In this document: one piece after another, positions 1 through 55,414 of the stretch
Position numbering within the stretch: the stretch's first letter is position 1
Layout of the letters: each line of letters opens with the position of its first letter
NCBI GenBank assembly: GCA_051294375.1
Contig: CM119269.1
Location: 5,467,609-5,531,608, forward strand
Origin: Paraspadella gotoi
Taxonomy: Eukaryota; Animalia; Chaetognatha
Direction of reading: 5' to 3'
DNA length: 64,000 nt
Made by a program: the position numbers and the translations under genes
Notes under the pieces: model-generated
What the model was told of the DNA's origin: nothing
The model's database searches: none
Seen by the model: the letters and a program-made list of their open reading frames with translations, nothing else

Positions 1-3000
1 ACGGCCAACCTGTGCGCCCTCTCTTCAAAGCGATGATTAGTAGCGTCGCCGAATTCGTCGCCGTCGAAGTCTCCAATAGAGAATACGGCACGCGAAGTCG
101 ACTCCCGCCGATCGTGGAGTTGCCTCAAGTTTCGCACGGACTCTTTATCCTCCATGTCGGCTCTGAAGACGTTCGGTGGGGTTCCAATATTGAAATCGTC
201 AAAAATGTAACAAAAATATTTTGTGATTAAAGGCGGAATAAAGAAAAAAATAGGGTTCGTTTGTGATCGTTTTGCTTCGGGTTTAAAGGGTTGAGCTTCT
301 GTGGAAGCACGAAACTAAAATACCCTCATTCAGTACATGACTGTTCATGAAAAGAAATTGCCCTCCTTTGATTGAGGGATTCAATGCAGACGCATGGCAG
401 TCTTTTGTTGGAAAGCAGACAAATCGAACAAAGCGGACCAAGCGGACAAAACAAAAGCTGAATAGAAGAGATTCAAAATAAAACAGCAACACAGAGAAAC
501 AAAGCAAATATTCACTAATTAATGATTTTACAGAGAAAAAACTCGCCTTTTATAAACGTGGAACTGACGGGGCGCGAGAGTGTTATCCTCCCATAACTGG
601 TGAAGGCTGTTATTGCTCATTTCTCCGGCGCCGTATAGATCTGTGACGCGAGGAAACGAAGTCTCACTTTTCTCGGGCGGCGGCGGCGGCGGCGCCTCCA
701 CCACGATTGGGGGTTTCGACGGCGCGCCAAGACCGACTCCGCCGATGCCGCCTCCGGCCACGATCTCAACGGCATCCTTGAGATGCAGTTTGGTAAATGT
801 GTCGATGATGGTGGCGTCCTTGACGCGCGGCGGGTCGCGCATCAAGACTGGACGGAAGTATTTGCCGTCGTAGTACTCGAATTTGTCCCTGAGGTAGTGA
901 TGGCCGTGATTGCCGGCGATGTCCTCGACGCCGGCCATGACGTGATCGACGAGGCGCTCGTTGACGCGTTCCGTCAGCGACGGCTTGCGCTTCTCCCGCT
1001 TCTTCACTTTGAGCAGCTCGACGAGGGGCTTGATGGAAGCGCCCTGGACGAAGCAGGTGAAGAGCACCATAGCGATGGCCGCCGTCACCATCATGTCACG
1101 GGCGGGAATGCGGCGTTTGTCCAGCAGAACGACGAGCGAGTAGGTGACGGCGCCGCGGATCCCGCCATAGCCCATGACGAACTGGGAGACGCGGTCCATC
1201 TTGACGACGCGCCGCCGGTTGGCGAGACGCGTGAGAACGACGACACCGAGGAATCGGAAGACGAGGCAGAAGAGAAGAGTGAAGGCGACGAAGCTCCCGT
1301 TCCATTCGTGGTTGTCCAGGTCGAGCGTGGAAAGGCCCAACAGGGCGAAAATCACAGTCTCCGAGATGTTGGAAAGCATCTTGAGAAAATACTTGACGGT
1401 CGTGTGGGACTTTTGCGAGATGTTCGCCTCCACGTACTGCTTCATGGTGATGCCGCAGAAGACGATGGCCATGATGCCGGAAAGGTGGAAAAGCTCGGCC
1501 GTGAGGTAGGCGAAGTAAGCCATGGCGAAGATGAAGATGGGCTCCACAATTCGGACTTGAGACGTGTACTTAGTGAGCAGGGCGGTGAGGAGGCCCCAAA
1601 CCACGCCCACCGCCGTCCCACCCAGAGCGACAACGAAAAAAGAGACCACGCCTTTTACGAAGTCCGCTCCTGTGGGGACGCCGCTCATGTTGGAAAATTC
1701 CTTATTATGGGTTGGGATAAAGAAAAGGGGAATATGAAATCAAAATTTAGCCAGAAGTCTTGGCTCAGTCAAAACTGCACTTCGATCAAATGTTTGATAA
1801 ATCTGACACACGTAATTGTGAAAAAAAAAAATTTTATCGAAAAAAAAAAACAAAAAAAAAACTGGATTTCATAATGCATCCGGGTGCATAGATCAACTAT
1901 ATCAATATCTGTAATTAATTTAATTCTGTAAAGTAGAGCGTAGTGAAAGTTACTTACGAAAATTCTAAAAGTCAATTATGAACATCATATCATCAGTTAA
2001 CATTAATTTGTAAAAAAAATCATTTTATGTTATTTATTTTTTTTATTTTTTAACATTTTAAAAAGTCAATGATTTATGTGTTATATGGTATGATAAAATT
2101 CTCTCATATTATAAATTTTTATTTGTCAGCGGATTTGGCTAACTTCTGAAATGATTTAAGTAAAAAGAGAACAACTAATTCTTGCTCCTTCCATAAAAAG
2201 TAATCGATGATCAAGGATCAAAATGATTTTGAAATTTTTTGAACCCGAGTACAAAAGTGTTTATGATCTTAGAAAGAGTTAAGAGGTACGACGAAACAAA
2301 TATAGTACTACGACTGTTTTTCATCTTACGATTTGTCACTTGTCAATTCAAGTCCATTTCAGTTTCAATTCAAGCCATAAAACGGCAATTACCGGCTTTA
2401 ATCCGGTTTTGTCGATTTTTCCTTCGTCAGACGTGACGTAGTTGCACCAAGAAAAATTCATGTTATAAGTTTAAGATTCGTAAAATTTTAAGATCAGAAC
2501 CAATTTTTTTAGTACACAAACGCATAATGAATCTCGGATGGAAAATGGTTCGTATTTATATAAAAAAAAATAATAGAAAAAGTGCAGATGCTCACGATGA
2601 TTCGCGGAAAAAAAAAACCCGGACTCTCGCGAACAAAAACGACGACGACTAGAACGACGACGAAAAAGTAAATTAGGAGTGACTTTGAATGAAATGGCCG
2701 CAGTAACCGATCGATTCGCCCGCGAAAAAGAGCGATCGATAAATTCCGACTATTCTGGAAATTTACGAGGTCGAGTTCAATTCGTCAAAAAAAAAAAATA
2801 TAAAGTATAAAATGTTTGTAAAAAGTCGTTTTTCGCTGTCAAGCTTCCCCCGCTCACCTCGAACATGTGATAGAGAACCACGGTGACGGCGTCGTTGAGC
2901 AAGGATTCCCCGAATACGATGATGTGGAGGACTTGATTGACATGGATCTCCTCGAAGACGGCGAGCACCGCCACGGGGTCCACCGCGGACACCACGGTGG

Positions 3001-54229: not shown

Positions 54230-55414
54230 TCATTTGTCATCCTTAAAGTCTTCGCCTAATAACTTCTGCTTTTCTTTCTCCAGCTTCCTCCTCTCCCATT
54301 CCTTGTCGATATAGTCTACGTCGTACAATCTCTCAAACTTTTTTCGAAGTCTTTTCGAGTATTCTAGAGATGGTAAGATTTCATCGCGCATGAGGCTGTT
54401 ATAGTCCGGATTCAGTGGAATATCTCCCGCTGCGTCGGCCACTATTCGTTGGGTGATCTCGCCCGTTTTGACGGCCTTCATGTAGTCCTCGGCCAATTGG
54501 GCCTTGTGATGTAAATCAAGCTCGGTGAGAATCCGCTTCCCGTCCTCGTCCCATCGATCTTCCATGGCGGCGACCTCAGCTTCGGTGAGGGATTGAGTGT
54601 ATCGGATCTCTTTGGCCTCCATGACAGAAAGGGGTTTACCCATTTTGACCGACATGTCCACGTCTAGCAACATGTCTCCCCACCTGGGCCAATTTTTCGG
54701 GTGGGAAGGATCATCGGGGCTGGCGTCGTCAATTGTCGAGTTTAACGCCTCCATATCGAACGTGTCTTCGTCGACGAGCAGCTCCGGCGTAAAAAGAGTC
54801 AGATTCTCAGGAGGAATCAAGGCGGCGGCGACCATACGTTGCTCGCTGGAGAGAAAGTTATAGGTAGATATGGCTTGCTCCGTGCGGAGGATCTCGATCT
54901 GAAGGCCGACGCGGCGACAATACTCGAGGACGGGGCCTTTGTCCCAAAGGGTCGTCCCGTCGCCGTCCCCGAGGATTAAGACGTCGAGACGAGGCTCGAG
55001 AAGGCTAAAGAGGGACAGCGATTCCGGAGTGATGTCGGTGGGGCTGGAGACTCGCCAGCAAAAGGCGCCGCGGGGAAAGAGGACGCAGGGTCCCATGATC
55101 TGAAAGCCGTTGGAGAGACGGAATCCCATCGGGCCGAAGGAAACAACGAAGTAGACATCCCTGTCCTCAGCCTCGTTGAGAATTTCTATAGAATTACCGG
55201 GGGGAATGCCGTCGGCCTCATCGGAGTGGCAACGAACCGACTTGTGAAAGGGGAAAGGGCAGAAAGGCGGGTGGCGGGTGCCGCTTGTCGATAACGAAGA
55301 AAGAACGGCACGGAAATGGACGCCCGGTACGTAGGACGCTACTTCATAAGAGAGAAAAAAATTCTGCGTTGCCAGACGAAACAGCGATGAACGAAAAACA
55401 CGCCGGAGAACCAT
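54230..55414 (-). CDS. NDUFAF3: Complex I assembly factor NDUFAF3 (Mth938-like) with a long C-terminal extension (intronless)
   Basis: GFRLSNG, GPCVLFP, ITPESLSLFSLLEPRLDVLILG, TEQAISTYNFLSSEQRMVAAALIPP, plus a mitochondrial-presequence-like N-terminus. Confidence 0.9.
   Translation of the reverse strand: MVLRRVFRSSLFRLATQNFFLSYEVASYVPGVHFRAVLSSLSTSGTRHPPFCPFPFHKSVRCHSDEADGIPPGNSIEILNEAEDRDVYFVVSFGPMGFRLSNGFQIMGPCVLFPRGAFCWRVSSPTDITPESLSLFSLLEPRLDVLILGDGDGTTLWDKGPVLEYCRRVGLQIEILRTEQAISTYNFLSSEQRMVAAALIPPENLTLFTPELLVDEDTFDMEALNSTIDDASPDDPSHPKNWPRWGDMLLDVDMSVKMGKPLSVMEAKEIRYTQSLTEAEVAAMEDRWDEDGKRILTELDLHHKAQLAEDYMKAVKTGEITQRIVADAAGDIPLNPDYNSLMRDEILPSLEYSKRLRKKFERLYDVDYIDKEWERRKLEKEKQKLLGEDFKDDK

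Follow-up and report, generated by a model that had tools for sequence, protein, structure and literature searches.

Twenty co-oriented genes rich in housekeeping functions in the chaetognath Paraspadella gotoi: a candidate series of operon-like units

A stretch of 64,000 nucleotides (nt) from the chaetognath Paraspadella gotoi (GenBank assembly GCA_051294375.1, contig CM119269.1, positions 5,467,609 to 5,531,608 of the forward strand), hereafter the window, carries 20 intact genes in head-to-tail order, all of them (20 of 20) on the minus strand of a compact animal stretch. The reading we favour, at a probability of about one half, is that this housekeeping array is made of several operon-like units together with some internal promoters. 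In this reading, the 20 genes would be transcribed as several polycistronic units and not each from its own promoter, and the downstream genes, above all seven ribosomal-protein genes, would get their 5' ends at acceptors near the ATG through a predicted spliced-leader trans-splicing. The gene of a SAC3/GANP-domain protein (SAC3D1), and perhaps those of a LIM-only protein, of USP34 and of a Na+/H+ exchanger (NHE), would have promoters of their own that split the array into sub-units, while SENP and METTL25 would share one mature dicistronic mRNA, or METTL25 would have a start site inside SENP.

Genes were called by Pfam scans of stop-free minus-strand open reading frames (ORFs) and by named homologues, and spliced models were set by hand and checked by translation. 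An earlier note, made from the letters of the window, had proposed twenty co-oriented genes in one or a few very long polycistronic units. Its gene count and orientation hold: Pfam or named homologues identify 19 of the 20 genes, the gene without a family match being gene 2, and all 20 ATGs and all 20 stops were found at the coordinates that its gaps imply. The named homologues, obtained in three homologue searches, are animal proteins with only 32-41% identity (cnidarians, molluscs, arthropods, echinoderms and vertebrates), which marks the source as a divergent animal. The seven cytosolic ribosomal-protein genes, POLR2J and SENP are likewise confirmed by Pfam, and the protein named SAC3D1 does contain a SAC3/GANP domain. 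In transcription order, with the longest spacer and the upstream flank included, the features are as follows (UTR, untranslated region).

55415..64000, no strand: AT-rich flank upstream of the array, GC 0.24-0.33, no recognisable gene; the expected place of the first promoter
54230..55414, minus: gene 1, the array's first gene, DUF498-domain protein; single ORF of 394 amino acids (aa); PF04430, E 2e-25; ATG and TGA checked
53045..54144, minus: gene 2 (G2cc), unnamed protein of about 214 aa (214-215); four GT/GC-AG introns, intact spliced ORF in two alternative models; no Pfam match in its exons
52347..52703, minus: gene 3, RNA polymerase II subunit RPB11 (POLR2J); PF13656, E 1.5e-29
51695..52226, minus: gene 4, ubiquitin-RPL40 fusion (UBA52); introns 52133-52059 (GC-AG) and 51834-51765; Pfam ubiquitin and Ribosomal_L40e; spliced translation intact
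51231..51476, minus: gene 5, RPS29; intron 51402-51328; PF00253; spliced translation intact
50380..50947, minus: gene 6, RPL32; introns 50836-50738 and 50629-50563; PF01655; spliced translation intact
46634..50135, minus: gene 7, photolyase/cryptochrome family; many exons, DNA_photolyase and FAD_binding_7 on six of them; RNA joint 46921/46996; last exon and stop read
45478..46633, minus: photolyase-SENP spacer, 1156 nt; RNA contig 8 down to 45775; spliced SENP 5' UTR intron 45625-45774
43990..45477, minus: gene 8, SENP/Ulp1 protease; single ORF; PF02902, E 4.5e-30
42473..43963, minus: gene 9, METTL25-like methyltransferase; PF13679 and named homologues
41696..42311, minus: gene 10, RPS16; intron 41890-41992 seen in RNA; PF00380 on three exons
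39937..41380, minus: gene 11, SAC3/GANP-domain protein (SAC3D1-like); PF03399; three introns seen in RNA
37885..39547, minus: gene 12, LIM-only protein; LIM matches on six exons; six introns seen in RNA
34947..37372, minus: gene 13, acylamino-acid-releasing enzyme (APEH); APEH_N and Peptidase_S9, named homologues; predicted intron model
34717..34794, minus: gene 14, RPL41 copy a, 25 aa; PF05162
34323..34400, minus: gene 15, RPL41 copy b, 25 aa; PF05162
31373..33856, minus: gene 16, TPR protein, called CNOT10 in the earlier note; TPR matches only; ATG and stop checked
30808..31164, minus: gene 17, RPL38; introns 31059-30999 and 30916-30834; PF01781; spliced translation intact
28260..30624, minus: gene 18, NUP42-like nucleoporin; the name rests on a zf-CCCH finger and Nucleoporin_FG repeats
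5895..27906, minus: gene 19, giant USP34/puf-type deubiquitinase, 22 kb; UCH, ARM_UBP24_USP9X-Y and DUF3517; AT-rich intron at about 10.0-14.4 kb
528..5092, minus: gene 20, NHE; PF00999 on three exons

The 19 stop-to-ATG gaps range from 26 to 1156 nt with a median of 283, and 10 of the 19 exceed 250 nt. In transcription order they are 85 (gene 1 stop to gene 2 ATG), 341, 120, 218, 283, 244, 1156, 26, 161, 315, 389, 512, 152, 316, 466, 208, 183, 353 and 802 nt, which agrees with the earlier values except for the last one (800 there). Spacers of 26, 85, 120, 152 and 161 nt leave no room for a successive 3' UTR, promoter and 5' UTR. Under independent orientation, 20 of 20 genes would fall on the same strand with a chance of 2 x 0.5^20, about 2e-6, a value to be read with the reservation that the orientations of neighbours in real genomes are not strictly independent. 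Besides, the two RPL41 copies are a tandem pair, and an old one, since they encode an identical protein of 25 aa with no more than 60 identical nt of 78; the array therefore counts as 19 independent genes. The presence of seven ribosomal-protein genes among 20 neighbours (RPS16, RPL41a, RPL41b, RPL38, RPL32, RPS29 and ubiquitin-RPL40) is a second oddity, independent of orientation. Such genes, together with POLR2J and other housekeeping genes, are the content reported for animal operons.

The rest of the window is poor in recognisable features. On the plus strand, none of 120 ORFs of at least 70 aa reached a Pfam cut-off, with one sub-cut-off Egg_lysin match in an ORF antisense to RPL38. Neither did any of the 147 ORFs of at least 35 aa on both strands of the AT-rich segments at 55.4-64 kb, 10-14.4 kb and 1-530, where two sub-cut-off matches were seen. 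A tRNA scan found no tRNA in the window, and no Rfam family reached its gathering score there. The GC content is about 0.5-0.6 in exons, 0.22-0.46 in spacers and 0.24-0.33 in the right-hand flank, so that non-coding DNA is AT-rich. Short introns are the rule, and those that RNA confirms, 12 in number, measure 61-279 nt and are all GT..AG. AT skew was considered as a marker of the transcribed span and dropped, the upstream flank having a similar skew.

RNA was examined in run X9, which is RNA because all but one of its 13 joints (12) have GT..AG on the minus strand. It was seen as assembled contigs, which give no local depth, ends or strand. The contigs were placed directly on 37000-47218, from the photolyase gene into APEH. 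Contig 7 (9551 nt) starts at 45804 in the SENP 5' UTR, spans SENP, METTL25, RPS16, SAC3D1 and the LIM gene, and passes 37000 with 1976 nt left, which takes it through APEH; introns are removed from it at the listed joints, while all five spacers between its genes are kept. Contig 8 (2652 nt) contains spliced photolyase exons and continues past the stop codon to 45775, exactly the donor of the SENP 5' UTR intron 45625-45774. Therefore, the 1156-nt gap is bridged and a sixth spacer is covered; the earlier note had suggested a possible break of the array at this gap, which the bridging RNA and the spliced 5' UTR intron inside it do not support. In total, X9 RNA is directly continuous over six spacers while being spliced at 12 introns.

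For the start of the array we compared word contents. X9 has 0.76 of the sampled words of 50000-56000, and the computed share of 50-56 kb is 0.72-0.75 with exons and all six spacers, and 0.47-0.50 without the spacers. Judged by this share, X9 RNA probably covers the six spacers of 50-56 kb too. The share is far from 1, so X9 is unlikely to contain genomic DNA throughout. We infer from the contigs that the continuity of RNA reflects co-transcription rather than overlapping mRNAs. With the predicted APEH introns, contig 7 would end near 34830, about 5 nt past the acceptor-like AG of RPL41a; the 3' end of APEH would then sit at the acceptor of the next gene, as in operons without an intercistronic region. 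One X9 contig, which looks chimeric and links 37155 with 45590 by 21 nt on either side, was disregarded after inspection.

To describe possible acceptors, we used one criterion fixed for all genes, a polypyrimidine-YAG 10-60 nt before the ATG. Such an acceptor-like site stands 19-57 nt before the ATG in all seven ribosomal-protein genes, and all seven polypyrimidine tracts end in YAG. In dinucleotide shuffles, a mean of 1.43 ribosomal-protein genes scored, and none of 2000 shuffles reached seven. On the antisense strand of the upstream regions of the 19 downstream genes only 1 of 19 scored, and random anchors in spacers gave a background rate of 0.205. For comparison, 9 of 12 RNA-verified cis 3' splice sites satisfy the same criterion. 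The positions of the sites are given below.

34835..34850, minus: acceptor-like polypyrimidine-YAG of RPL41a, AG at 34837-34836
52252 and 52258 (UBA52), 51525 (RPS29), 50995 (RPL32), 42347 (RPS16), 34423 (RPL41b), 31208 (RPL38), minus: first base after the acceptor-like AG, ribosomal-protein genes
37406 (APEH), 5117 (NHE), 54146 (G2cc), minus: first base after the acceptor-like AG, non-ribosomal genes

These sites are predicted to be used in trans. No X9 cis joint uses the site of RPS16, though the joint of RPS16's own intron is seen, which would mean either no splicing at this site or trans-splicing of a leader so short that the assembly of contigs would probably clip it. In some spacers, such as UBA52-RPS29, a poly(A) signal stands about 16 nt before the acceptor-like AG. 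No spliced-leader RNA family was found in the window by Rfam, even at E up to 1.

Some genes of the array may have their own promoters. The sequence beside the ATGs of USP34 and NHE is rich in G, C and CG, and a promoter-type motif lies upstream of SAC3D1.

41397..41406, no strand: TCTCGCGAGA, an exact palindrome with no other match in the window; precedes the SAC3D1 ATG by 17 nt; candidate internal promoter element

In vertebrates, TCTCGCGAGA is described as a promoter element that housekeeping and ribosomal-protein genes use (PMC6192621). The SAC3D1 motif, together with the lack of acceptor-like sites in most non-ribosomal genes, argues against very long units, be it one or a few, and for several units with internal promoters.

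The pair SENP-METTL25 is a special case. The stop of SENP and the ATG of METTL25 are 26 nt apart (43964-43989), a single RNA contig spans the two ORFs and has no splice joint in between, and no acceptor-like site was found between the two or just upstream of the METTL25 ATG. Dicistronic mRNAs are known in animals, and SENP-METTL25, with ORFs 26 nt apart on one RNA contig, resembles them, which makes it a candidate for a mature dicistronic mRNA; alternatively, METTL25 may have a start site inside SENP.

Several results weigh against the operon-like reading. A contig over two genes fits one transcript, overlapping or abutting UTRs and rare read-through alike, and intron-bearing contigs stand at about 4% of the depth, as estimated from one bin (38023-38363). 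Acceptor-like sites are found in only 2 of the 12 non-ribosomal downstream genes, which is the background rate of 0.205. No shared non-genomic leader was seen among the 13 of 38 contig loose ends that were examined. The polypyrimidine tracts could instead be TCT/TOP-type initiators, and several of them have C and then TTT. In 8 of the 19 spacers neither AATAAA nor ATTAAA, the canonical signals, occurs. The exact TCTCGCGAGA before SAC3D1 belongs to the same side.

Many of these points are what the strongest alternative would predict, namely that the array consists of packed ordinary monocistronic genes with compact promoters of their own, whose 3' UTRs abut or overlap the 5' end of the next gene. 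The ribosomal-protein genes would start at TCT/TOP polypyrimidine initiators and others at CG-rich elements such as TCTCGCGAGA, and the co-orientation would be a by-product of compaction, in which head-to-tail packing avoids polymerase collisions. It accounts for the SAC3D1 motif, for acceptor-like sites confined to the ribosomal-protein genes (7 of 7 against the background-level 2 of 12), as for an initiator specific to them, and for the absence of a leader among the loose ends examined; RNA also retains spacers better than introns, as if the spacers were UTRs of mature mRNAs. However, gaps of 26, 85 and 120 nt cannot hold a separate 3' end and 5' end, an initiator needs no YAG while all seven tracts end in one, and 20 of 20 genes on the same strand with seven ribosomal-protein genes together are not expected from packing alone. 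We consider this alternative a serious rival, although less likely than the operon-like reading.

At the other extreme, the whole array could be one RNA polymerase II unit of about 55 kb that starts near 55.5 kb, holds all 20 genes and is resolved by 3'-end cleavage and trans-splicing. No plus-strand genes were found, the RNA is continuous from photolyase into APEH (and over 50-56 kb by inference) with the 1156-nt gap bridged, and the flank above 55.4 kb is AT-rich without a recognisable gene, all of which would suit such a unit. It is nevertheless unlikely, in view of the promoter-type motif TCTCGCGAGA inside the array, of the G-, C- and CG-rich sequence beside the USP34 and NHE ATGs, which is promoter-like by interpretation, and of the lack of acceptor-like sites in most non-ribosomal genes. 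If the predicted intron model is right, the end of contig 7 would also fall near 34830, where RPL41a has its acceptor-like site. Among the operons found in print, the chaetognath maximum is nine genes (PMC12460157) and that of Ciona seven (PMC7986045). The claim of one or a few very long polycistronic units made in the earlier note is thus sustained in part: co-orientation, short spacers, housekeeping enrichment and RNA over six spacers agree with it, while the internal promoter motif and the acceptor-less non-ribosomal genes do not.

Chance or artefact, i.e. random orientation with a run of 20 as a fluke of many windows scanned, or a mis-assembly, is very improbable: 2e-6 per window is not negligible across very many gene-dense windows, but the short gaps and the ribosomal-protein clustering are independent oddities that random orientation does not explain, DNA runs of two samples have 0.99-1.00 of the words of 50-56 kb, and an independent RNA run of 2018 matches 8.6 kb of the window with one differing letter.

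The operon-like reading can be compared with known systems, among them that of the same species. In the published account (PMC12460157), operons of Paraspadella gotoi are defined by gaps below 250 bp and leader-bearing reads, and the longest one in a chaetognath unites nine genes, with ribosomal-protein and ubiquitin genes among them. Like the array, these operons are co-oriented, have short gaps and are enriched in housekeeping and protein-metabolism genes; they have no operon-specific leader (PMC12460157), and none was seen here. Compared with the nine-gene operon, there are 20 genes here, 10 of 19 stop-to-ATG gaps exceed 250 nt and trans-splicing is a prediction. The array resembles known animal operons in layout and content and is a candidate member of the class.

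Nematode operons contain 2-8 genes. The SL2/SL1 operons of nematodes resemble the array, with its acceptor-like sites, in having the acceptor close to the ATG and in their head-to-tail order; their intercistronic medians are near 110 bp (PMC7986045), and stop-to-ATG distances of a few hundred nt, as in the array, fit a 3' UTR plus about 110 nt of intercistronic sequence. Unlike them, the array gives no hint of a specialised leader and has few canonical poly(A) signals, its run is far longer, it contains a photolyase, and the homologue searches gave no close nematode matches. Tunicate operons (Ciona, Oikopleura) share the compact genome and short introns, and the poly(A) signal about 16 nt before the acceptor-like AG of UBA52-RPS29 resembles tunicate operons without an intercistronic region (PMC7986045). 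In the same source, however, tunicate intercistronic medians are 1-57 bp and Ciona operons have up to seven genes, and the homologue searches gave no close tunicate matches. The polycistronic units of kinetoplastids (PMC6597758) are alike in having tens of same-strand genes and no internal opposite-strand genes. The array is not of the kinetoplastid type because of its many cis-spliced introns: 12 RNA-verified introns lie in 10 kb, while kinetoplastid arrays are virtually without them. The gene content is also animal, with USP34, a LIM-only protein and an APEH gene that has its best matches in animals.

Operons arose several times in animals, and there is no consensus yet on their causes or on why growth-related genes gather in them. 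With seven ribosomal-protein genes packed onto one strand beside genes for a subunit of RNA polymerase II and for mRNA handling, the array is a very sharp case of operon enrichment. If it is partly co-transcribed, a compact animal genome could tie the dosage of ribosomal proteins to a single promoter or to a few. Were the whole array one unit, the known size limit of animal operons would rise, since the longest found in print, with nine genes, is less than half as long. If each gene has its own promoter, it would be a case of extreme compaction of promoters and UTRs, including a 26-nt gap between ORFs.

Further observations concern single genes. GC-AG introns are found in UBA52 (first intron, 52059-52133, demanded by the ubiquitin frame) and possibly at 53672-53745 in one of the two gene 2 models, and weak donors among the RNA-verified introns include GTTGGC, GTAGAC, GTTTGA and GTATTT. 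In the photolyase gene, an exon start (47083-47108) is duplicated upstream in the intron (47130-47155; 26 nt, 85% identical) in a pseudo-exon-like manner. The 279-nt intron of the LIM gene contains a hairpin-like inverted repeat at 38246-38364, where an X9 contig folds back on itself; it matches a plant microRNA precursor family weakly, at 47 bits where the cut-off is 83, and a small inverted-repeat element is the probable explanation. For the giant deubiquitinase, Pfam suggested USP9X, an identity we rejected: its homologues are USP34 (32-37% identity), and named homologues point to a USP34/puf orthologue. Four long (GA)n/(TC)n microsatellites occur in introns and spacers of the array (3350-3452, 5440-5502, 13888-13942 and 15470-15512).

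Some RNA matches stand apart from the gene contigs. About 40 X9 contigs match 47152-47191, a 40-nt piece of a photolyase intron that is single-copy in the window, with a summed depth of about 17000 against 317 for the gene contig. At 47180 all of them read G in place of the C of the window. On the high-coordinate side they have in common a short extension that is CT-rich in the minus sense, about 32 nt from the contig end, and they diverge into different AT-rich sequences on the opposite side, as would a dispersed expressed repeat or something leader-like. Besides, the RNA-like runs X10-X12, which are labelled as a different organism, contain spliced RPS16 mRNA pieces at 41504-41890 with no mismatch; their cover is limited to the last RPS16 exon and the 3' UTR, with nothing elsewhere in 37000-47218. 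This suggests that the most abundant mRNAs of this animal occur in samples of another organism, by association, food or carry-over.

At the edges of the window, a minus-strand ORF of 104 aa without a family match (3-314) lies downstream of the Na+/H+ exchanger and runs past the left edge, so the same-strand run may extend beyond the window on that side. In the gene-free flank, 58092-59850 on the plus strand has a weak sub-cut-off HTH_Tnp_4 match (19.7 bits) beside an ORF of 142 aa without a family. With degenerate telomere-like 17-nt repeats at 58692-58811, this segment may be a decayed DDE transposon.

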